Below the pieces are notes generated by a model. It searched no databases. It saw only the letters and a program-made list of their open reading frames with translations, and was not told where the DNA came from. A DNA stretch of 20,000 bases from an uncultured virus (IMG/VR IMGVR_UViG_3300046507_000547) (Duplodnaviria > Heunggongvirae > Uroviricota > Caudoviricetes): IMG/VR virus record IMGVR_UViG_3300046507_000547, one strand, 5' to 3'. A program made the position numbers and the translations under genes. Below, in pieces: positions 37 to 17,520 of this stretch (the stretch's first letter is position 1; each line of letters opens with the position of its first letter).

Positions 37-657
37 ATGCCCCAGATTATCTGCTCCGTTGACGAGTGCGAGCGTCCAGTCCTGGTTAAGTCGCGTGGAT
101 GGTGCAGGATGCACTACCTGCGATGGCGAAAGACTGGCGACCTCGGGCCCGCTCAAAGCTTGAAGCTCAAGAACGGGAGCGAATGCGCGGTCGATGGCTG
201 CGTCGGCCAGCCACGGAAACGCGGCATGTGCGAGATGCACTATCGCCGACGGCGCATCCATGGCGACCCGGGCCAGGCCGCGAAGCTGTGCCAGCGGAAT
301 CCCACTGAGTGCACCATGGACGACTGCACCCGAACACCAAAGGCCCGCGGCCTATGTGAAATGCACTATGTGCGCCAGTGGAAGCATGGCGATCCGAATC
401 GCGTCGACCAGACGAGCGGTAACTTCCGCGGCGACAACATCGGCTACTCCGGAATTCACATGCGTGTTCGGTCACTGCGGGGTCCGGCAACACAGCACCA
501 CTGCCGTCACTGTGGCGATGGCGCCGAGCAGTGGGCATACGACCACGGCGACTCCAACGAGCGTCGCGATGACGAGGGTCGGCTGTACAGCACAGAGGCA
601 AGCCACTACATGCCGCTCTGCGTCCCTTGTCATCGGGAGCTTGACGGCCTGCCGTAG
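37..657 (+). CDS. Putative HNH-like (homing) endonuclease with three N-terminal CCCH Zn-binding repeats
   Basis: Three C-x4-C...RG[WML]C-x-MHY-x-R...GD[LP] repeats; C-terminal CRHC...DH...CVPCH HNH-like Zn module; GAGAGG RBS at 25-30. Confidence 0.65.
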   Translation: MPQIICSVDECERPVLVKSRGWCRMHYLRWRKTGDLGPAQSLKLKNGSECAVDGCVGQPRKRGMCEMHYRRRRIHGDPGQAAKLCQRNPTECTMDDCTRTPKARGLCEMHYVRQWKHGDPNRVDQTSGNFRGDNIGYSGIHMRVRSLRGPATQHHCRHCGDGAEQWAYDHGDSNERRDDEGRLYSTEASHYMPLCVPCHRELDGLP

Positions 658-1725: not shown

Positions 1726-1750
1726 CCACCCGTGAGTGAGGGGAGGCGTC

Positions 1751-4700
1751 ATGACCAGTTCCAGCATCGTCTACCGGCTCATCGCCCACGACAGCGCATC
1801 CCGCACCTTCAATACCGTGGGCCGGTCGGCGAGCAGCACGGAGCGCACGCTCGCGAAGCTCGGCCAGACCGCCGTCAAGGCGGGCGCGGCCATGGCTGCC
1901 GGGCTCGCGGTGGGACTGGGTGAGTCGGCGAAGAAGGCAGCCGAGTTCCAGTCCGAGATGACTCGGATCTCGACGCAGGCCGGCGGCACCGCGAAGGACG
2001 TCAAAGTCCTGTCGGATCAGGTGCTGAAGCTGGGCACGTCTACCCAGCAGGGTCCGCAGCACCTCGCCGAATCGCTGTACCACCTGAAGAGCGTCGGCAT
2101 GGACAACGTGTCGGCGATGAAGGCGCTGAAGGAGTCCGCGGACCTGGCCGCGGTCGGCCACGCCAACCTTGAGGAGACCACCAACGCCCTGGCGGGCGCC
2201 TGGCGTACCGGCATCAAGGGCGCCACCTCGTTCCACGAGGCTGTCTCCACGGTCAACGCGATCATCGGCGCGGGCAACATGAGCATGGACGCTTTCAACG
2301 CGGCCATCGGTACCGGCATCCTGCCCTCGGCGAAGACGTTCGGCCTGTCGATGAAGCAAGTCGGTGCCGCCTTGGCCCTGATGACGGACGAGGGTATCGA
2401 CTCTGCGTCGGCCGCTACCCGGCTGCGCATGAGCTTCTCGCTGCTCGGCGCCCCGTCTAAGGCGGCAGAAAAGCAGCTCGGGAAAATCGGGCTCACCGGC
2501 CTGAACTTGGCCGACGCGATGCGCGGCCCCAAGGGTTTGATCGGCGCCATCGGACTGTTGAAGGAGCACCTCGACAAGTCGGGGCTGTCCGCATCGAAGC
2601 AGTCCCAGCTGCTGTCCCGCGCGTTCGGCGGGGGCCGTTCCTCGAGCGGCATCCTGCTCATGCTCAACAACCTCGACGTGCTCGAGAAGAAGCAGGAGCA
2701 GATCAACCGATCGACGGGCAAGTTCGACGACGCGGTCAAGATGCAGCGCAAGACCGCCGAGGCCCAATGGCACCTGCTCACCTCGAACCTCGAAGTAATG
2801 GGCATCCGGGTCGGCACGAAGGTGCTGCCCCCGGTCACCAGCTTCATCCACTTCCTGGCCACCGATGCGATGCCGACCGCCGCGCGCTTCGGCCGCGCCA
2901 TGGCCGCGATCGTTCCCGTGGATCAGATCAAGCAAGGATTCTCCCAAGCGCAGGGCATGGTCGGAGACTTCCTCAAGGGCTTCTCCGGGACCAAGAAGGC
3001 CACCTCGGATCTTCTGGGCGGCCTGTTCGATACATCGCCACACCTGGGCAGCAGCAAGGCGTCCGTGGCCTCCAAGGGGCCCGCGTTGGCGCCGATGCCG
3101 CACTTCGGCGTGGGTCAGGTGGCGCCCACCACCGGTGTGCAGGGGCCTGCCCTGGCGCCTATGCCGCACGGTGGGTCGGGGCTGGTGGCCTCGCTCGTGT
3201 CGCCGAAGGCGAAGCCGCCCAAGAGTGCTGCTCAGAAGATCGGCGAGACGATTCGCCGGGCCATCTCTGGCGGCTTCAAGGACATCAACTGGGGCAACCT
3301 GGGCTCGATCCTCGGCAAGGGCCTCGGGGATGCGATCGGCTGGGTCGGGAAGCACACCGCCGACTTCACCAAGAAGATCGCGAAGGTCTTCGCTGGCCTG
3401 GACTTCGTCGAGATCGGCAAGGGCTTCGGGGCGTCCGCGATTCCGCTCGCGATCGGCTTCATCAAGTCGGTGTTCGACCCCCTGTTCAGCCTCGACTTCT
3501 GGAAGAAGCACTGGCTCGACACGATCCTTGCGGTCATCTCGATCATCCCGATCGGTCGCGTCGCCGGAGTACTCGGCAAGGTCTTCGAGCACATCCCGTT
3601 CCTGAAGGTCTTCGAGCCGCTACTCAAGGGCGTCGGGAAGCTCGGCGGCTGGATCGAGAAGGCCTTCGGCAAGGCCGTGAAGTTCTTCGGTACGAACCTG
3701 TGGAGGGGGCTCGCCAAGGTCTTCCCTGAGGCCGCAAGCGTCGTTGAACGCGAAAGCGGGCTGCTCACCACGCGCATCGGCGTGTGGGGCATCAAGCTGA
3801 TGGACAAGGGCAAGGCCGCCATCCACTTCCTGGGCAACGGCATCCGTGATGGAGCCGGCTGGGTCATTGCGAAAGTCGGCGAGATCGTCGGCCTCGTCGT
3901 GAAGCCTTTCGTCAAGGCTGGCGGCTGGCTGATCCGCAAGGGTGCCGACGTCGCGCGGGGCTTCGGCGGCGGTATCGCCCGGGGCGGCCGGAGCATTGGC
4001 GGCTTCGCCAAGAAGTGGGTCATCGACCCGGTTGTTGGCGCCTTCTCGCGTGCCGGGTCGTGGCTGCTGTCCAAGGGGCGTGCGCTCGTCTCCGGTTTCA
4101 GGGGCGGCGTGAGTGCTGGCGCGAAGGCGATCGGGGGCTGGGTGTTCGACCGCATCTTGGTGCCCGTCGCCAACTGGATGGCCAGATCCGGAAGGTGGCT
4201 GATCGGCAAGGGCAGTGCGCTGGTGTCCGGCTTCAAGTCGGGCGTCAGCGCCGGGGCCAAGGTGATCGGGAGCTGGACGATTTCGCACATCGTCAGCCCG
4301 GTTCTGAGCCGCTTCACCAAGGCGGGCGGCTGGCTCGTGAGCAAGGGCGGCTCGCTGATCTCCGGCTTCAAGAGCGGGATCGTCGGAACGATGAAGGGCA
4401 TCGGCTCTTGGATCAAGAAGACCATGGTCGATCCCGTCGTCAACGCGGTGAAGCACTTCTTCGGCATCCGCTCGCCCAGCCGCGTTTTCATGGGCATCGG
4501 CGGCCACATCGTCTCCGGCCTCATGAAGGGCATGGCGAAGACCAGCGGCACGGCCATCGCGAAGAAGGTCTTCGGCAGCTTGCCCAAGGCCCTCGGATCG
4601 ATCGTCAAGAAGGGCTTGGTCAGCATCACCAAACTGCCCGGGAAGGCCCTCAAGGCGCTCGGTGGGCTGGGCGGCGACGTTCTCGGTCTCCTTGGTCTGG

Positions 4701-6415
4701 GCGGGAGCGGCGGCGGCTCGTCGGCCAACCAGAAGATCGGCGAGGCTCTGGCCGCAGCCCGGGGCTGGTCCGGCCCGCAGTGGGCTGCCCTGAAGAACCT
4801 GTGGAATGGGGAGTCCGGCTGGAACGAGCGGGCCCTGAACAAGTCGTCGGGCGCGTATGGCATCCCGCAGTCGCTGCCCGCGAGCAAGATGGGCTCGGCC
4901 GGCTCGGACTGGAAGACGAACGCGTCCACGCAGATCAAGTGGGGTCTGTCGTACATCAAGTCCGTGTACGGCAATCCGCTGAACGCCTACTCGCAGTGGC
5001 TCGCCCGCTCTCCGCACTGGTACGCCCAAGGCACGGGCGGCGCGGCCAGGGGCCTGGCCTGGGTCGGCGAAAAGGGTCCTGAGCTGGTCAATTTCAAGGG
5101 CGGCGAGGACGTGATGTCCAACCCGCAGTCGATGGCGTTCGCCAAGGCCAACAACATCAAGCTGCCCGGTTACGCCTCGGGCACCATCACCAACGCGGCG
5201 GACCGGGTGCGGCGCGACCACCAGCGCGTCCAAGACGCGAAGGACGATGTGGCGCGCGCCAAGCGGCGACACAAGGGCGTCCAGGCGGCGGAGACCCGGC
5301 TCCGGGCGGCGCAGAAGGAGCTGCAGGCGGCGAACATCGCGCTGAAGAACGCGCAGCGGTCGGCGAAGACGTCGATCGCCAACACGATCGCCACCGGCCT
5401 GCTCAAGACCCTGAGCACGGGCACCTCGTCGGCTATCGCATCGGCGATCAAGAGCCTGGCGACGAAGCTGCTGAACGCGGGCTACAACCGCACCGCCGCC
5501 AGCATGCAGAAGAAGGGCGGTCGGCTGGAGAAGCTCGCCGACAAGCGGGCCAGTGTGCAGAAGACCATTGCCGCGGCCAACCAGTACGCGAGCGACCAGG
5601 CCTCCACCATCAAGGACTTCCTGAGCATCAGCGGGACGTCGGCCACCGACATCGGCGGCCTCATCTCGCAGATGAGCGGCCAGCAGAAGACGGCGAGCAG
5701 CTTCGTGGGTCTGACCCGGTCGCTGAAGGCTCGTGGCGCTTCGAAGGACTTGCTCCAGCAGCTGTCCGACGCAGGTCCGGGCAGCCAGCTCGCGACCATC
5801 CTCGGTCAGAGGAACGTCACCACCCAGGACATCAGCAAGCTCAACGGCCTGGTGGCCAGCGGCGGGAAGCTGGCGACGTCCTTCGGCAAGGACATGGCCG
5901 ACCTGATGTACGACACCGGGAAGCATGCCGGAGAAGGCTTCCTTGCCGGACTGAAGGCCACGGAGAAGGATCTCCAGAAGCAGATCGACAAGCTCGCCAA
6001 GGGCCTGATTGCGGCGATCAAGAAGGCGCTGAAGATCAAGAGCCCGTCGGTCGTCATGCGCGACGAGATCGGCAAGAACGTCGTCCTCGGCTGGGTCGCC
6101 GGAATGGACATGCACAGCCACCTCGTCGGCGGCGCAGCCCAGCGTCTCGCCGACACCGCGTCCGGCGTGTCCGTGCGCCGCCGCTACGTCCCGACCGTTG
6201 CCAGTCAGGGTGGCGCCCGCGAAGACGCGCTGTGGGAGCGGCTTGCAAGCGCACTCGAGCAGCAGGCCAGCCGGGACAGTCACCTCACCGGCGAACTGCG
6301 CCTCGACTCCGGCGAACTGCTCGGAGTCATCCAGGGCGCCGTGAAGCCGCAAATCAAGGCCTCCGCGAACATGCAGGCCTACCGGGCCAAGGTCGGGCGG
6401 AGGAGCGGCGGATGA
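1751..6415 (+). CDS. Tape measure protein (1554 aa) with lytic transglycosylase-like domain
   Basis: GGGAGG RBS, ATG 1751; long Ala/Gly/Lys-rich helical ORF with TP901-like core and Trp/Phe-periodic repeats; ESGWN...SSGAYGIPQ motif at ~4811-4870. Confidence 0.95.
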   Translation: MTSSSIVYRLIAHDSASRTFNTVGRSASSTERTLAKLGQTAVKAGAAMAAGLAVGLGESAKKAAEFQSEMTRISTQAGGTAKDVKVLSDQVLKLGTSTQQGPQHLAESLYHLKSVGMDNVSAMKALKESADLAAVGHANLEETTNALAGAWRTGIKGATSFHEAVSTVNAIIGAGNMSMDAFNAAIGTGILPSAKTFGLSMKQVGAALALMTDEGIDSASAATRLRMSFSLLGAPSKAAEKQLGKIGLTGLNLADAMRGPKGLIGAIGLLKEHLDKSGLSASKQSQLLSRAFGGGRSSSGILLMLNNLDVLEKKQEQINRSTGKFDDAVKMQRKTAEAQWHLLTSNLEVMGIRVGTKVLPPVTSFIHFLATDAMPTAARFGRAMAAIVPVDQIKQGFSQAQGMVGDFLKGFSGTKKATSDLLGGLFDTSPHLGSSKASVASKGPALAPMPHFGVGQVAPTTGVQGPALAPMPHGGSGLVASLVSPKAKPPKSAAQKIGETIRRAISGGFKDINWGNLGSILGKGLGDAIGWVGKHTADFTKKIAKVFAGLDFVEIGKGFGASAIPLAIGFIKSVFDPLFSLDFWKKHWLDTILAVISIIPIGRVAGVLGKVFEHIPFLKVFEPLLKGVGKLGGWIEKAFGKAVKFFGTNLWRGLAKVFPEAASVVERESGLLTTRIGVWGIKLMDKGKAAIHFLGNGIRDGAGWVIAKVGEIVGLVVKPFVKAGGWLIRKGADVARGFGGGIARGGRSIGGFAKKWVIDPVVGAFSRAGSWLLSKGRALVSGFRGGVSAGAKAIGGWVFDRILVPVANWMARSGRWLIGKGSALVSGFKSGVSAGAKVIGSWTISHIVSPVLSRFTKAGGWLVSKGGSLISGFKSGIVGTMKGIGSWIKKTMVDPVVNAVKHFFGIRSPSRVFMGIGGHIVSGLMKGMAKTSGTAIAKKVFGSLPKALGSIVKKGLVSITKLPGKALKALGGLGGDVLGLLGLGGSGGGSSANQKIGEALAAARGWSGPQWAALKNLWNGESGWNERALNKSSGAYGIPQSLPASKMGSAGSDWKTNASTQIKWGLSYIKSVYGNPLNAYSQWLARSPHWYAQGTGGAARGLAWVGEKGPELVNFKGGEDVMSNPQSMAFAKANNIKLPGYASGTITNAADRVRRDHQRVQDAKDDVARAKRRHKGVQAAETRLRAAQKELQAANIALKNAQRSAKTSIANTIATGLLKTLSTGTSSAIASAIKSLATKLLNAGYNRTAASMQKKGGRLEKLADKRASVQKTIAAANQYASDQASTIKDFLSISGTSATDIGGLISQMSGQQKTASSFVGLTRSLKARGASKDLLQQLSDAGPGSQLATILGQRNVTTQDISKLNGLVASGGKLATSFGKDMADLMYDTGKHAGEGFLAGLKATEKDLQKQIDKLAKGLIAAIKKALKIKSPSVVMRDEIGKNVVLGWVAGMDMHSHLVGGAAQRLADTASGVSVRRRYVPTVASQGGAREDALWERLASALEQQASRDSHLTGELRLDSGELLGVIQGAVKPQIKASANMQAYRAKVGRRSGG
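3908..4447 (+). repeat. Four tandem 135-nt (45-aa) repeats inside the TMP
   Basis: Units start at 3908, 4043, 4178, 4313 (FVKAGGWLIRKG / FSRAGSWLLSKG / MARSGRWLIGKG / FTKAGGWLVSKG). Confidence 0.9.
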
Positions 6416-11745: not shown

Positions 11746-12657
11746 ATGATCCACGGCATTGACGTCTCGGCATACCAGTCGGCGACGTACAGCACGGCAG
11801 GCCTCGACTTCGTCTTCGTGAAGGCCACCGAGGGTGTCTCCTACACCAACCCACGGATGGCCGCGCAGGCCAAGCGGGCACGCGACGCTGGGCTCGTCGT
11901 CGGCTACTACCACTACCCGCACATGGCCAACGACCCCGTTCAGGAAGCCAACTACTTCCTGAAGCAGGTCGCCTGGCAGCCGGGGGACATCATCGTCTTC
12001 GACTGGGAGGGCTACGACGCCGCCAACAAGAGTGTGCCGAAGTCCCGGCAGCTCGCCTACCGCGACGCCTGGCTGAAGTACGTCAAGGGCAAGATGGCCG
12101 CCCACCGGGTCGGCATGTACTGCAACACCGACTACTGGCTGAACGTCGACAAGACCGGCACCTGCGGTGACTTCCTCTGGATCGCCACCGGCGGCAAGCC
12201 GGCCGGGCAGCCGGGCATCAAGGCGCCGTGGCTGTTCCACCAGTACTCCACCGCGGGCGGCATCGACCACGACGTCGCCACCTTCACCGATCGCGCCGCC
12301 CTCGCCGCATGGGCGCAAGGTCTCACCCAGGAGAACGACATGGCCGTCACGGACGCCGATGCACTGAAGATCGCTCGCAAGGTGCTGACCCTCGACGAGA
12401 TCACCGCGCCGAAGGACGCGCCCGACGTGGCAACCAACCCGTCGTGGCGACTCGACTCGTACACCAAGGACACAAACGCGCGCGTGCGTGGCCTCGAGAA
12501 GCAGCTCGCCGCGCTCACCGCGACGAACGCGAAGCTCGTCGACACGGTCGCGAAGCTCGCGGCCGGCATCGGCGGCCTCGATCCCGCGGCGATAGTCGCC
12601 GAGCTGAAGCAGGCCATCGAGTCCATCGACATCCACCTCGACGTCCCCAACGTCTGA
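11746..12657 (+). CDS. Endolysin, GH25 muramidase
   Basis: GIDVSAYQ, FVFVKATEG, GYYHY, DWE (DxE), WLFHQYS...IDHD motifs; C-terminal helical/coiled-coil region. Confidence 0.92.
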   Translation: MIHGIDVSAYQSATYSTAGLDFVFVKATEGVSYTNPRMAAQAKRARDAGLVVGYYHYPHMANDPVQEANYFLKQVAWQPGDIIVFDWEGYDAANKSVPKSRQLAYRDAWLKYVKGKMAAHRVGMYCNTDYWLNVDKTGTCGDFLWIATGGKPAGQPGIKAPWLFHQYSTAGGIDHDVATFTDRAALAAWAQGLTQENDMAVTDADALKIARKVLTLDEITAPKDAPDVATNPSWRLDSYTKDTNARVRGLEKQLAALTATNAKLVDTVAKLAAGIGGLDPAAIVAELKQAIESIDIHLDVPNV

Positions 12658-12683: not shown

Positions 12684-13010
12684 ATGAACCTCGACATCTC
12701 CAAGGCCCAGGTCATAGGCCTGCTCGTCACCCTGGTCCTCCCGGTCCTCGTGGGCCTGGTCACGACCCGCGTCACCTCGCCCGGCGCGAAGGCCGTACTC
12801 CTGCTGCTCTTCACCGCGGCTGACGGGTTCCTGGTCGAGCTCGGCAACGCGGGCTCGGGCTACAACGTGGCGAACGGCGTGTTCTACGCGGTGATCGGCT
12901 TCGTGACCGCGGTCGCCATGCACTTCGGGCTGCTCAAGCCCACCGGGGTGTCCGGCAAAGCGCAGGACACCCTCATAACCGCCGGTCCCCGTACCGCTCA
13001 GGGCGCCTGA
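12684..13010 (+). CDS. Holin (about 3 TM segments, 108 aa)
   Basis: MNLDISKAQVIGLLVTLVLPVLVGLVT...; three hydrophobic stretches; directly after the endolysin. Confidence 0.8.
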   Translation: MNLDISKAQVIGLLVTLVLPVLVGLVTTRVTSPGAKAVLLLLFTAADGFLVELGNAGSGYNVANGVFYAVIGFVTAVAMHFGLLKPTGVSGKAQDTLITAGPRTAQGA

Positions 13011-13044
13011 GTCTGCCCATCTTGCGCGACCGGGAGGGCGCCAC

Positions 13045-14021
<977 letters not shown>

Positions 14022-14029
14022 GGAGCGCC

Positions 14030-14125
14030 ATGGAAGACGACGAGACCGCGGATCCGTTCTGGCTGTCGCCGCGGCCGTTCCTCGAACCCGACCTGCCGCC
14101 CCCGCCCGACGACGAGACCGAGTGA
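14030..14125 (+). CDS. Small acidic Pro-rich protein (31 aa)
   Basis: AGGAG RBS at 14021-14025, ATG 14030; MEDDETADPFWLSPRPFLEPDLPPPPDDETE; terminator follows. Confidence 0.55.
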   Translation: MEDDETADPFWLSPRPFLEPDLPPPPDDETE

Positions 14126-14128
14126 CGA

Positions 14129-14165
14129 CGCCCCTGCAGCTTCGGCTGTGGGGGCGCTTCTCCTT
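14129..14165 (+). terminator. Terminator of the lysis operon
   Basis: CGCCCCTGCAGC-TTCG-GCTGTGGGGGCG 12-bp stem (two G:U pairs), C(UUCG)G loop, pyrimidine tail. Confidence 0.75.
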
Positions 14166-14336
14166 GCCCGGTCGCAGCGGGACTAGCGCATAACGTTCCC
14201 TGAAGCGCTGCCCGTTGACCATGGACGGCTCTCGATAACATGCCGTATCGCGGGCCCTACTCCTCTGGAGCGGGGCCCTTCGTCATGTGGAGGGTCGCCT
14301 CTCAACTCACGGAAACGACAGGTGTTACCAAAGGTA

Positions 14337-14364
14337 GCCGCGTATAATTTCCCTTATACAAGCC
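14337..14364. other. Putative dif/lox-like recombination site overlapping a TATAAT -10 box
   Basis: GCCGC-GTATAA-TTTCCC-TTATAC-AAGCC: inverted hexamers around an asymmetric 6-bp spacer, upstream of the recombinase operon. Confidence 0.6.
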
Positions 14365-14383
14365 AGACTTGAGAGGGAGAATC

Positions 14384-14716
14384 GTGAGTCTTGCGAAGCC
14401 CAACGGCACATGGGAACTGACCGTCTCTTGCCCGCGCCCCCGCAACCGCGCGCTGGACGACTTCCATACCCAGCCGGAGAAGGTGGCTCGGATTGCTGCT
14501 CAATGGTTCGGGCCTGACGCGACGCTGACCCTGACCGCCCGCAGGGTCCGCCTGACGTGCACACTGGAAACGCCGCCACGCGATCTGACGACGTGGCACG
14601 ACCGCCTCGCCACCGCCTTGCACTGCCTGTATCTCGACACCCATGGCGACGACGGCTCGTACCACCTACCGCGACCAGCGCGTACCGAGGTGTACGAGAA
14701 GGAGCGGGCGGCGTGA
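14384..14716 (+). CDS. Hypothetical protein (110 aa), coupled to the recombinase
   Basis: GAGAGGGAG RBS plus GTG 14384; stop overlaps the recombinase start (GTGA). Confidence 0.65.
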   Translation: MSLAKPNGTWELTVSCPRPRNRALDDFHTQPEKVARIAAQWFGPDATLTLTARRVRLTCTLETPPRDLTTWHDRLATALHCLYLDTHGDDGSYHLPRPARTEVYEKERAA

Positions 14717-15870
14717 CCGACCCCGATGAGGTGGTCGACGCCGAGCTGGTGGACGACGGCCACCTCCCCGCCCCGCTCCCCAAGACGTCGCCCGCCCGGC
14801 CGCTCGTCGACCGGCACACGATCCTGGTCCCCGGCGAAGCGTTGCCCACCGAAGCCGAGCAGCCGACGTACACCGAACGCGACCTCTACGTCAGCAAGGC
14901 CACCGCCGAGCGGCTCAAGAACAAGTCCAAGCCGAAGAACACGTCCCGCACCTACGACAACCAGCGCGACCTCTTCCGCCGCTGGTGCGAGTCGCAGGGC
15001 CGCGTCCACCGCCCCTGCACCACCGCCACCTACGTCGAATACGTCGCCACCCTCATCGAGGCCGGCCGGGCACCCAACGCCATCTCCGTCGCCATGTCCG
15101 CCATCCGCACCTGGATGCCCGACGACAAGAAGCCCGGCACCGCCGAAGCGCGCGGCATGCTCAACGAGTACAAGAAGGAATGGAACAAGCGCGTCGGCGT
15201 CAAGAAGGCCCCCGCCATCACCGACGACATGATCCGCACCATGGTCGCCACCTGCGACCCGAACCACCCCATCGGCATACGCGACCGCGCCGTACTCCTC
15301 CTCGGCCGCGGCGCCCTCAACCGGCGCAGCGAACTCGCCGACCTCACCATCGGCAACGTCACCGTCGAATCCGACGGCGTCGCCCTCTGGTTCACCTCGT
15401 CGAAGACCGACCAGGAAGCAAAGGGTGAGGAGACGTTCATCCCGGCTTGGGACGACCCCGACATCGACCCCGTCCACGCCGCCCGCGCCTGGCTCGACGT
15501 ACTCCACCGACTCGGCGTCCACGAAGGCGCATTCCTCCGAGCCCTCACTCGGGAAGGCCGCCTACAGTCGCGGATCGCGGCGACCGATCGCGGCGAGCAC
15601 GTCACCGGGGACGCAATCAACGAGTGGGTGCGGAGCCGCGCCAAGCTCGCCAACATCAAAGGCTGGGAGAAGATCACGGCTCACGGTCTGCGTCGCGGCG
15701 GCGCGCAGGCCATCGCGGACGCCGGCGGTGATCCGACCAGCCAGGGCCGATGGCAAGAGGGGTCCGCAGTGGTGAAACGCGAGTATCTCGACCGAGCGTC
15801 GAACCGGCGCGATAATCCCTGGCTCAAGCTGGCCCGGCCCGCATCGACCGGCAATGAGGAGGCGACGTGA
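14713..15870 (+). CDS. Cre-like tyrosine recombinase (385 aa)
   Basis: RDRAVLLLG...RRSEL (R), SKTDQ (K), HGLRRG (HxxR), QGRW (W), REYLD (Y); N-terminal core-binding domain NTSRTY...FRRWC; AAGGAG RBS. Confidence 0.9.
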   Translation: MTDPDEVVDAELVDDGHLPAPLPKTSPARPLVDRHTILVPGEALPTEAEQPTYTERDLYVSKATAERLKNKSKPKNTSRTYDNQRDLFRRWCESQGRVHRPCTTATYVEYVATLIEAGRAPNAISVAMSAIRTWMPDDKKPGTAEARGMLNEYKKEWNKRVGVKKAPAITDDMIRTMVATCDPNHPIGIRDRAVLLLGRGALNRRSELADLTIGNVTVESDGVALWFTSSKTDQEAKGEETFIPAWDDPDIDPVHAARAWLDVLHRLGVHEGAFLRALTREGRLQSRIAATDRGEHVTGDAINEWVRSRAKLANIKGWEKITAHGLRRGGAQAIADAGGDPTSQGRWQEGSAVVKREYLDRASNRRDNPWLKLARPASTGNEEAT

Positions 15871-16040
15871 GCGGGCAGGAACCCGAGGAGCACCCGAAGG
15901 ACTGGATGGAGATCTGGTACGAGACGGGCGAGATCACCTGGCAGAAACCCCTATCGCCCGAGGCCGAGCAGCGCATTCAGGATCTCTGCCGCAAGCTGCT
16001 GGAGGAGCAGGGTGAGGGTGCGGAAGACGACCAGGCCTGA
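15867..16040 (+). CDS. Small acidic hypothetical protein (57 aa; not in ORF track)
   Basis: GAGGAGG RBS, GTGA overlap; MSGQEPEEHPKDWMEIWYETGEITWQKPLSPEAEQRIQDLCRKLLEEQGEGAEDDQA. Confidence 0.7.
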   Translation: MSGQEPEEHPKDWMEIWYETGEITWQKPLSPEAEQRIQDLCRKLLEEQGEGAEDDQA

Positions 16041-16048
16041 GCACGCGA

Positions 16049-16080
16049 ACGCCCCCGCAGTCGTCTGACTGCGGGGGCGT
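16049..16080. terminator. Bidirectional terminator hairpin
   Basis: Perfect 14-bp stem ACGCCCCCGCAGTC-GTCT-GACTGCGGGGGCGT between convergent genes. Confidence 0.8.
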
Positions 16081-16097
16081 CCTGCTGTCCAGTCGGC

Positions 16098-16574
16098 CTA
16101 CTTATAGAAGACGGCCACGCCTCCGTGGTGCGAGCAAGCACCCTGGTGGTGGGCGGCGTAGCTGTACGAGCCGTCATTGCACATGGCGGTGGCCCCGCCT
16201 CCGGCCACGCTGGAACTACCCGAAGAGCCCGACCCGCTACCCCCGGACGAACTGCCGCTACTCCCTCCGGACGAACTGCCGCTGCCGGAGGGGGCCTTCG
16301 CGGTGACCGTCACCTTCACCTTGACCGTCTTCGTGACGGTCTTCGTAACGGTCGGCGCGGGTTTCGGCGTCGCGGTCGCCGTGGCCGTCACGGTGACGGC
16401 GGGCCGGGGTTTCGCCGCGGCGGCCTTGGCGTCGCTGCTGTCCTGGCTGTTGCCGCTGGCTCCGATGACGACTGCGAGACCGAGCGCGGGAAGTACGTAG
16501 CGCTTGCGGGCCCACTTGGGAGCCGGTCGGGACGGCTGCGGCGGTACAGGCGGCCTGGTGTACGGGTTGCTCAA
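16098..16574 (-). CDS. DUF3761-like membrane-anchored/secreted protein
   Basis: N-terminal TM/signal, Thr/Val and Ser/Gly linkers, C-terminal ATAMCNDGSYSYAAHHQGACSHHGGV. Confidence 0.8.
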   Translation of the reverse strand: MSNPYTRPPVPPQPSRPAPKWARKRYVLPALGLAVVIGASGNSQDSSDAKAAAAKPRPAVTVTATATATPKPAPTVTKTVTKTVKVKVTVTAKAPSGSGSSSGGSSGSSSGGSGSGSSGSSSVAGGGATAMCNDGSYSYAAHHQGACSHHGGVAVFYK

Positions 16575-16667
16575 GGCGTCCCCCCTTGTCGTGCTTTCTG
16601 AGGGGATGACGGTAGCGGGAGGTGTAGGGGTTACGTAAGTGTAGTGACGATCTCGTGATCGTTGTTG

Positions 16668-17009
16668 CTATCCCTCTACGTACCCGAGCTCCGAGTCCGG
16701 CCGGCAATGCGAGCATGCGGCGACCCCTTCGGCGAGCGCCCGCAGCGCCTGGTCCCGCTGTACGCCCCGGCTGCGTTTGCCCGCCATGTGGCAGCCGCCG
16801 ACGTGGACGTACACGGCGGGGGAGTGCCCGTCGAGGCCCTGCTCGATGAGCCAGTCGGGTTCGGGCGGCCGGGCCTGTTCGCCGCGGCGCTGCTCGGCCT
16901 GCCGTCGTTCCTCTGCTGCGATCCACCTGCGGGTGCGCTCGAGGTCGGCTTCCTGGACGCGTTTGAGGAAGAGGAGCTGGTCGAGGCGAGAGGCGGGCTG
17001 GTCGTTCAC
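16668..17009 (-). CDS. DUF6233-like Zn-binding protein
   Basis: N-terminal coiled coil; VHVGGC...ACSHCRPD motif; leaderless GTG 7 nt after TAATAT. Confidence 0.75.
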   Translation of the reverse strand: MNDQPASRLDQLLFLKRVQEADLERTRRWIAAEERRQAEQRRGEQARPPEPDWLIEQGLDGHSPAVYVHVGGCHMAGKRSRGVQRDQALRALAEGVAACSHCRPDSELGYVEG

Positions 17010-17038
17010 ATGTTCGATATTACGCGTAGGCTGATTCC
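17002..17038. promoter_or_regulatory. Overlapping divergent leaderless promoters with an imperfect LexA (SOS) box
   Basis: -10 TAGGCT (17027-32, +) and TAATAT (17022-17, -); TCGAAC-ATGT-GAACGA on - strand vs consensus TCGAAC-N4-GTTCGA. Confidence 0.5.
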
Positions 17039-17251
17039 GTGGATGACCAGCGGTATCACCTGCTCCTGTCGACCGGCGGCCGGCCCGTCATGCACGGCTG
17101 GTGGGGCGACCGCGCGACGGCCGAGCGGAAGTTCCGGCGCTGGATCGGCGAGCACGGCAGCGTCTCCGGCGCCCGGGTCGTACTGGTCGACGAGCAGGAG
17201 CAGCGGGTCCTCACGTCCTGGCCCGACGAGGCGGACGGCCTGCCAGACTGA
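17039..17251 (+). CDS. Hypothetical protein (70 aa)
   Basis: GTG 6 nt after TAGGCT; RYHLLL...VMHGWW...AERKFRRWIGEHG...WP. Confidence 0.75.
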   Translation: MDDQRYHLLLSTGGRPVMHGWWGDRATAERKFRRWIGEHGSVSGARVVLVDEQEQRVLTSWPDEADGLPD

Positions 17252-17322
17252 TACCACCCCTCGTCGCCATCCCCCGTCGCCGAGGGGCGCCTGCCATCCT
17301 GGGGGTGGACCTAGGAGGGGCA

Positions 17323-17520
17323 GTGAGCGATCGGCTGGAAGCGCGGGAGCGTGAACGCATCGAAGGACTTCAGGTGCGGGTGAGGGAGCTGGAGGAGACG
17401 GTCCTCTACCTCTTCAAGACCTTGCAGCAGCACGGCGTCATCGACGACACCGTGGCCTCGGTCGCCGACCGCATGTACGCGCAGGGCCGCGACATCCGCA
17501 GACAGACCGGCGCCCGCTGA
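17323..17520 (+). CDS. Hypothetical coiled-coil protein (65 aa)
   Basis: AGGAGGGG RBS plus GTG 17323 (MSDRLEARERERIEGLQVRVRELEETV...). Confidence 0.7.
   Translation: MSDRLEARERERIEGLQVRVRELEETVLYLFKTLQQHGVIDDTVASVADRMYAQGRDIRRQTGAR

Follow-up and report, generated by a model that had tools for sequence, protein, structure and literature searches.

A putative Cre/lox-type recombinase module in an uncultured actinophage, with counterparts on Streptomyces phage-plasmids

The recombinase module and its lox-like site

The window analysed here, 20,000 nucleotides (nt) of phage DNA from an uncultured virus of the Caudoviricetes (IMG/VR record IMGVR_UViG_3300046507_000547), is by the family matches of its genes the late region of a siphovirus-like actinophage; all site and gene positions are given in window coordinates (Table 1). 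Behind its lysis genes lies a compact module, in which a lox-like site heads three open reading frames (ORFs) on the same strand, viz., ORF110, a gene for a tyrosine recombinase and ORF57, joined by GTGA overlaps. An initial annotation, made from the letters alone, had described these coupled genes as a Cre/lox-like recombinase with its cognate site, distinct from the lambda-type integrases. The gene arrangement holds, with the GTG start of ORF110 corrected to position 14384 from 14385, and the broader description is borne out by a conserved pairing of site and gene, a Cre-type fold and a separate integrase in an integrated relative. We consider it probable that the module serves a temperate Streptomyces siphovirus as a Cre/lox-type system for resolution or cyclisation and not for integration.

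The site stands out as an AT-rich island in GC-rich DNA, the GC content being 67% across the window and ~61% around the site. Its core, GTATAATTTCCCTTATAC (GTATAA-TTTCCC-TTATAC; 14342-14359), encloses the perfect TATAAT first pointed out in the annotation (14343-14348, its last base being the first of the centre and the others belonging to the left arm), and is unique: a search of the window for GTATAA-N6-TTATAC with up to two mismatches returns one match, where shuffled sequences lead one to expect 0.01 and 1 of 200 shuffles matched. The 6-bp arms originally noted are part of a larger structure, in which 13-bp imperfect inverted arms flank an asymmetric centre. This can be read as 13+8+13 (Table 1) or, alternatively, as 13+6+13 at 14335-14366, with the spacer TTTCCC at 14348-14353. 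The ATAA-N6-TTAT arrangement, for which a dif-like core had been invoked, is indeed present, but to judge from its sequence the layout of the whole site fits the 13+8+13 of lox better than dif.

The recombinase matches PF00589 over residues 169-341, its catalytic domain (34.6 bits against a cut-off of 27.1; E 2e-8), and phrog_1 (integrase) among the PHROG families (E 6.8e-8). Residues 72-133 form a SAM-like core-binding domain with a weak Pfam match, and residues 1-60 match no domain and are modelled with low confidence. The R-K-HxxR-W-Y catalytic set is complete, as the annotation had it: R204/R205, K231, H324, R327, W347 and Y358 do not vary across 35 aligned homologues, the C-terminal catalytic residues being assigned by motif only. 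When an AlphaFold model built on the homologue alignment was compared with the PDB by Foldseek, every listed rank down to 31 was Cre or the Cre-derived Tre (best E 3.9e-7; target TM 0.50), with XerA, XerH, Tn1549 Int and lambda Int ranking below; neither Pfam nor the structure model revealed an arm-binding domain. On the strength of the model, the protein appears to be Cre-like, its nearest solved folds all being Cre.

Pairing of site and gene, and the variable DNA around them

A Cre-type recombinase is recognised in part by a cognate-type site beside its gene, with inverted arms of ~13 bp and a short asymmetric spacer, and this is what we find at the locus and beyond it. We compared 20 near-full-length orthologue loci, viz., the window, the plasmid locus L001, the S. 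mirabilis locus L002 and L013-L029; a protein scan of genome contigs gave only two loci. L003, which covers residues 227-376 only, was left out, and L012 is the same place as L002. An intact site lies upstream on the coding strand at 16 of the 20, and two more (L013, L027) have a half-site hybrid that keeps the gene-proximal half only. Conversely, when IMG/VR was scanned for exact copies of the 17-nt core of the site, 25 loci came up, 16 in high-GC and nine in low-GC DNA. At each of the 16 high-GC loci an orthologue (50-93% identity) follows on the same strand after 200-700 nt; the low-GC loci have none and are chance matches.

The arms themselves have evolved as a dyad. In an alignment of 32 sites (29 distinct), complementarity holds for 83% of the arm cells and drops to 23-46% if the partner columns are slid, and six of the 13 arm pairs change on both sides; none of 500 shuffles reaches the observed values, the count taking G-T as a pair and thereby slightly flattering position 11. 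The outer positions covary as a palindrome. Mean arm symmetry is 9.9 of 13 in the viral loci, whose outer positions were unselected, against 6.9 in the chance hits, and it is perfect (13/13) at L022, L047 and L070. Even the most distant locus, L029 (38% identity), keeps the symmetry with other arm letters. We therefore read the arms, from this pattern of covariation, as probable protein-binding dyads. They fall into two classes, TAGCC and CACCC, which change only twice on the recombinase tree (shuffled mean 10.2; 0 of 500 shuffles as low), which shows a stable pairing of site and gene. The centre, read on the coding strand, is TTTCCC in most sites and TTTACA, TTTACC, TCGGCA, GTTTGC, GATTCC or TTACGA in the others, seven sequences in all, and its asymmetry holds a constant orientation relative to the recombinase gene.

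In contrast to this constancy, the slot between site and gene is highly variable, as the annotation had anticipated in proposing to look for conservation of the motif upstream of homologues while the intervening ORF varies. Across the 32 loci the gap ranges from 17 to 1271 nt; six have no ORF of at least 40 amino acids (aa) in it, and the rest hold at least 15 unrelated families. Of 46 such cargo ORFs searched against Pfam, matches were limited to DUF6221 (two ORFs), a weak HAD-like match (two) and a helix-turn-helix domain (one). ORF110 matches no Pfam or PHROG family, falls with only five protein clusters among 5.8 billion proteins and has a homologue in the same slot at only one of the 32 loci (L068); ORF57, in the likewise variable downstream slot, also matches no Pfam or PHROG family and has a homologue only at L059. 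Between close relatives, similarity ends at the end of the site and restarts at the start codon of the recombinase. Thus, ORF110 has the appearance of variable, interchangeable cargo. Of the two roles first suggested for the small ORFs, cargo is the one that stands; since they vary between loci, they are unlikely to be required directionality factors. Where cargo is shared between loci it has diverged as much as the recombinase (66-70% nt identity), which speaks against recent swapping and points to old replacement or descent. The slot is a hot spot for ORFan cargo, paralleling the unexplained cra gene of P1. Several other cargo ORFs (L001 8699-8983; L002 5720-5953) are small, Cys-rich (CxxC-like) and unrelated to ORF110.

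The DNA upstream of the site is conserved in part. In sites of the TAGCC class an accessory region accompanies the site; it is conserved in an alignment of eight loci whose recombinases are 50-93% identical. It contains an inverted CGATA/TATCG motif, an invariant GTTACC and a GC-rich hairpin, in which T-G or G-T positions have become C-G or G-C in some loci, i.e., compensatory changes. Further out, the window matches two viral contigs at 91-93% over 14184-14217, around the AACGTTCC box. The S. mirabilis locus L002 has no such accessory block; relative to it, the window has ~110 extra nt (14218-14329) between the box and the site, bounded by GTTGACC/GTTACC. By analogy with the plasmid sites cer and psi, the accessory region could be accessory binding DNA, or else it could insulate the module as a terminator, and it leaves room for a cofactor that the recombinase may need.

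Carriers, single sites and the probable role of the module

More than 120 relatives of the protein (64-92% identity) come from Streptomyces, many of them on contigs of 82-102 kb, and an orthologue is present in 18 of 401 sampled Streptomyces species genomes. In PLSDB, 26 Streptomyces plasmids carry one (60-80% identity), and 10 of the 25 orthologue plasmids listed are 88-94 kb long. One of these records, NZ_CP109510.1, is circular (90,155 bp) and encodes terminase, major capsid protein, HK97 gp10, tape measure protein, an amidase/lysin, a DnaB-like helicase and Rad52, a phage gene set that marks it as a phage-plasmid; its recombinase gene follows the tail and lysis genes, a position like that in the window. 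Among the site-bearing IMG/VR genomes, three of 86-92 kb carry direct terminal repeats and have a completeness rating of 100%. The episomal phage-plasmid link originally suggested thus holds for the orthologues, which lie on circular phage-plasmids of ~90 kb, and is a possibility for the window phage itself, of which 20 kb were analysed. The tail protein of the window has only weak matches among plasmids, which are other elements, and 25-34% identity to ~35-61-kb actinophages. The closest relatives of the module share with the window only the recombinase gene (82-87% nt identity) and the stretch 14226-14377 (78-84%), which is the only non-coding stretch common to the window and the closest viral contigs. 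The ~90-kb plasmids share the module and not the backbone with the window phage, and the module is therefore mosaic across elements. Distant homologues (33-36%) are encoded by the 129-kb Streptomyces phage Gilgamesh and by a Microcystis phage (MN234216.1, PP395638.1).

The annotation had proposed a search for a second site. In all ten genomes or records searched (five genomes with class-C sites and five genomes or records with class-T sites), a single site was found; an additional three-mismatch site in G092 lies on an AT-rich contig of 456 bp and was taken as contamination. With a single site per genome, the recombinase would naturally act on two directly repeated copies of it. The separate integrase that was likewise to be sought is present in the one relative that is clearly integrated. 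In G169, a 6.9-Mb chromosome carries the module within an 85.8-kb element (C1 5,651,932-5,737,783; L074-L079) that sits in an ABC permease gene and is flanked by the 14-bp core AACTTCATCTGGAA, its junctions being fixed by the empty loci of three other species genomes. This element has its own attL and attR and a 434-aa conventional integrase adjoining attL (phrog_1, E 3.7e-32), while the Cre-like gene and an intact site lie ~10 kb inside its other end. The arrangement argues that in this relative integration is performed by a different enzyme at a different site. A 61-nt repeat considered as the att of the G169 element proved to be GC-rich coding similarity, and the empty-site junctions were used in its place. 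No serine recombinase was found in five related viral records.

Two decayed copies bear on where the enzyme acts. In G261 (C1, ~8,547,270 to 8,601,509, where the contig ends; L013/L030-L033), 54 kb separate the module from the end of its 8.6-Mb contig. The left arm of the site has given way to the 5' untranslated region of an SDR/NmrA-like host gene together with its start codon, a gene that five other species possess intact. The transition lies no more than ~2 bp from the left edge of TTTCCC, and the host sequence at the junction agrees with the arms at ~4 and 6 of 13 positions. The rest of the SDR/NmrA-like gene is missing from the genome, which has only paralogues at no more than 39% identity; a search with up to two mismatches found no partner hybrid junction, and the surroundings of the copy contain insertion sequence (IS) elements and ordinary genes but no phage genes. 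In G098, only the gene-proximal arm persists, beside a recombinase pseudogene. That two copies broke independently at the predicted crossover point speaks for strand exchange there, and the poor likeness of the G261 host sequence to the arms makes that event look like rare off-target recombination followed by decay. The distal stretch of the G261 contig holds IS elements, which were all that a megablast of this arm against plasmids matched, and, near the contig end, a gene with helicase-associated domains.

Hence, we propose the following mechanism. One recombinase monomer would bind each 13-bp arm of the 34-bp site, and strands would be exchanged within the asymmetric centre TTTCCC. Copies in direct repeat would arise from a dimerised circular prophage or plasmid, or from a terminally redundant genome entering the cell, and the outcome would be resolution to monomers or cyclisation, as Cre achieves for P1. 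Those relatives that integrate would do so by means of a different integrase, and the slot ORFs such as ORF110 would be co-transcribed cargo, dispensable for the reaction. It is from sequence comparison that we infer catalytic activity, the positions of cleavage, the role in resolution or cyclisation and any transcription start at the TATAAT.

Several observations weigh against this proposal. A profile search of PDB sequences gave no match at E <= 0.01, and hhalign against P1 Cre reached a probability of 6.6% (E 0.0056, 154 columns), a weak alignment in which R204 falls opposite Cre R173 and K231 opposite Cre K201; sequence methods by themselves do not appear to demonstrate kinship to Cre, and the model used in the fold search is of moderate quality (mean pLDDT 66.8, pTM 0.52). 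The inner ATAA/TATA motif of the arms is common to Xer- and Cre-type sites, so that the likeness to loxP may be partly generic. Two of the 20 orthologue loci (L021, L025) have no site within 1.5 kb of the orthologue. Because the site lies in cis to the gene, common descent would lead one to expect the two to diversify together, and their doing so is no proof of specificity. Further, the module follows directly on the lysis genes, in the place that the integration cassette usually occupies in temperate actinophages, three site-bearing contigs are labelled 'provirus' by IMG/VR, and the hybrid sites of G261 and G098, which keep the gene-proximal arm and continue in foreign DNA from the spacer outwards, would also fit an integrase with loosely matching targets.

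These last points, together with the lack of any integrase other than the Cre-like recombinase visible within the window, speak for a simple tyrosine integrase devoid of arm-binding functions, for which the lox-like site would be attP and which would insert the phage at loose chromosomal targets and excise it again. However, each of the ten genomes or records has one intact, two-armed site and no partner hybrid; G261 has neither the partner junction nor the remainder of the target gene, and its host sequence resembles the arms poorly; the G169 element, which is truly integrated, has a different integrase and a different core; and many orthologues reside on circular plasmids or terminally repeated contigs. 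We accordingly regard such an integrase as unlikely. The G261 relic could be the trace of an exchange of chromosome ends. The single hybrid junction at the spacer, with both the remainder of the gene and the partner junction missing, fits an event in which the recombinase family, besides resolving dimers, recombines its site with unrelated chromosomal DNA, a single crossover on linear replicons swapping the chromosome ends. We hold this to be improbable; if true, a Cre-like phage-plasmid enzyme would be a driver of Streptomyces chromosome-arm turnover.

A quite different function for the palindrome would be that of a promoter and operator, the TATAAT driving the ORF110-recombinase-ORF57 operon and a dimeric regulator occupying the dyad, while the recombinase acts elsewhere. 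The perfect hexamer is followed by a conserved leader and ribosome-binding site, hairpins insulate the module on both sides and the accessory region upstream is conserved. Yet a sigma-70 scan did not call the TATAAT and found no -35 partner 16-18 nt from it, and the 13-bp arms with their centre of constant orientation, the covariation of the arms with the recombinase lineage, the breakage of two decayed copies at the centre of the site and the match of the layout to P1 lox-cra-cre all speak against a regulatory site; we judge it very unlikely that this is the main function. The two roles are mutually compatible, and autoregulation from the site, suggested by the -10-like hexamer inside it, is plausible. 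The diversity of the slot, with its unrelated ORF families or none and its replacements bounded by the end of the site on one side and the start codon on the other, might also call to mind a capture or inversion of cassettes as in integrons or shufflons, with the recombinase inserting or flipping the small ORFs at the site. The annotation had entertained a swapping of accessory cassettes, which would work through two sites. This finds no support because each of the ten genomes or records searched has only one site, with no second one flanking the cargo, and the shared cargo has diverged as by descent; we deem it extremely unlikely.

If the Cre/lox-type interpretation is right, the ~90-kb Streptomyces phage-plasmids and some smaller temperate phages appear to use the P1 solution, i.e., one recombinase with a private, adjacent site, and the module offers a way into the question of how these plasmid prophages, which have been little studied, are kept stable and monomeric. 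It is also a candidate recombinase/site pair from a high-GC host for genome engineering, probably orthogonal, whose natural variants in two arm classes and seven centres may be heterospecific. Possible uses lie in marker recycling and cassette exchange in actinomycetes, in which Cre itself is already in use.

Relation to known systems and the surroundings of the module

The module is best understood as a distant actinobacterial counterpart of P1 Cre/loxP, and thus, as far as the sequences indicate, as a system of a kind already known. In the P1 record, lox (13+8+13), a 73-aa ORF named cra ('cre associated function') and cre follow one another on one strand, the same order of site, small ORF and recombinase gene as seen here. 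Both systems have a 34-bp site with 13-bp inverted arms and an asymmetric 8-bp centre, a single tyrosine recombinase with Trp at the second-His position and, in the relatives of the window, phage-plasmid carriers of ~90 kb with one site per genome. Read from the sequences in the dyad frame, the P1 arm is identical to the left arm of the window at 9 of 13 positions and to the right arm at 6 of 13, and to the left arm of L002 at 10 of 13, with the same inner CGTATA. In contrast, the proteins are only ~15% identical in structural alignment, with no significant sequence match, and the present enzyme has an additional N-terminal extension of ~60 residues. The host is a high-GC actinomycete, a symmetric A...T pair flanks a 6-bp centre in the site, and one class of sites has the conserved upstream accessory region of ~105 nt.

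Cre-type recombinases have previously been mined as proteins of 300-400 aa with the residues R173, K201, H289, R292, W315 and Y324 and a palindrome with arms of 13-15 bp within 1 kb of the gene (Jelicic et al., 2023; PMC10250229). Our case shares with the pairs described in the available text of that study the logic of discovery, the catalytic set and the nearby palindrome. The main text of the same study mentions neither Streptomyces nor Actinobacteria, and relative to the pairs it presents, the family reported here offers natural variants in arm classes and centres. Likewise, pSLE1 and pZL12 are circular Streptomyces plasmids of ~86-90 kb with phage particle genes and ParAB (PMC4487206); the available text of that report names 'putative integrases' on both and assigns them no role. 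By its description, our orthologue-bearing plasmids are of the same kind as pZL12 and pSLE1, but the recombinase of ZL12 matches only residues 73-260, at 28% identity. Our search of the literature on Streptomyces phage-plasmids, pZL12, Cre-type and lox-like systems and multimer resolution found no description of this recombinase family.

Other tyrosine recombinase systems are less close. XerC and XerD are two paralogous host recombinases that act at dif, a site of 11+6+11 bp in the chromosomal terminus, and the plasmid sites cer and psi have accessory DNA upstream of their core. With these the present system has in common the ATAA-N6-TTAT core, the presumed resolution of dimers of circular replicons and accessory DNA in the corresponding place; it differs in having one element-borne recombinase and 13-bp arms, with the site beside its own gene on phages and plasmids, and Xer structures rank below Cre in the fold search. 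The lambda-type integrases share the PF00589 superfamily and the genomic position after the lysis genes, but no arm-binding domain is detected here, the genomes or records searched hold no attL/attR pair derived from the site, and the integrated relative G169 relies on a conventional integrase. Integrons differ in that neither the window nor the ten genomes or records has a second site, the cassettes being unflanked.

On either side, the module is set off from its surroundings by a hairpin. The one on the left, of the terminator type, is predicted to close the upstream late/lysis operon and so to form the left boundary of the module. On the right, the terminator of the initial annotation is present as a hairpin between the convergent genes, but it has no T-tract and a terminator scan did not call it; it is likely a bidirectional terminator lacking a T-tract.

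Table 1. Features of the recombinase module and its neighbourhood (aa, amino acids; nt, nucleotides)
Feature	Position	Strand	Remarks
HNH endonuclease	37-657		
Tail assembly chaperone			late region of the window
Tape measure protein	1736-6415		1559 aa
Tail and fibre proteins			late region of the window
GH25 endolysin	11746-12657		accompanied by holin-like genes
Collagen-like protein	13329-14021		
Terminator-like hairpin	14129-14156	+	12-pair stem with 9 GC pairs, then tail CTTCTCCTTG
AACGTTCC box	14192-14199	+	upstream of site; present in window, L001, L002 and L053
Accessory region	14229-14333	+	~105 nt; conserved with site in TAGCC class
CGATA-N8-TATCG	14233-14250		within accessory region
GC-rich hairpin	14252-14278		within accessory region
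GTTACC	14324-14329		invariant; in accessory region, shortly (5 nt) before left arm
lox-like site	14334-14367	+	13+8+13 reading: GTAGCCGCGTATA / ATTTCCCT / TATACAAGCCAGA
Shine-Dalgarno-like GAGGGAG of ORF110	14372-14378	+	5 nt upstream of GTG; leader conserved in relatives
ORF110	14384-14716	+	110 aa, no known family; slot between site and recombinase gene
Cre-type tyrosine recombinase (predicted)	14713-15870	+	385 aa; PF00589, invariant catalytic residues, Foldseek matches to Cre
ORF57	15867-16040	+	57 aa, acidic, no known family; downstream slot, likewise variable
Hairpin	16049-16080		perfect 14-bp stem, 4-nt loop; between convergent ORF57 (+) and DUF3761 gene (-)
DUF3761 protein gene	16098-16574	-	family match; convergent with module

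No tRNA gene, looked for as an attachment target, was found in the window, and a megablast of positions 13000-17500 against INPHARED (50,697 phage records) returned no near-identical DNA. Rightward of the DUF3761 gene are ORFs without a family match. The DUF3761 coding region itself has 12-nt periodic repeats (16296-16399), suggesting a repetitive, low-complexity segment, and the tape measure protein has an internal transglycosylase-like segment, its residues ~1000-1100 matching phrog_12661.

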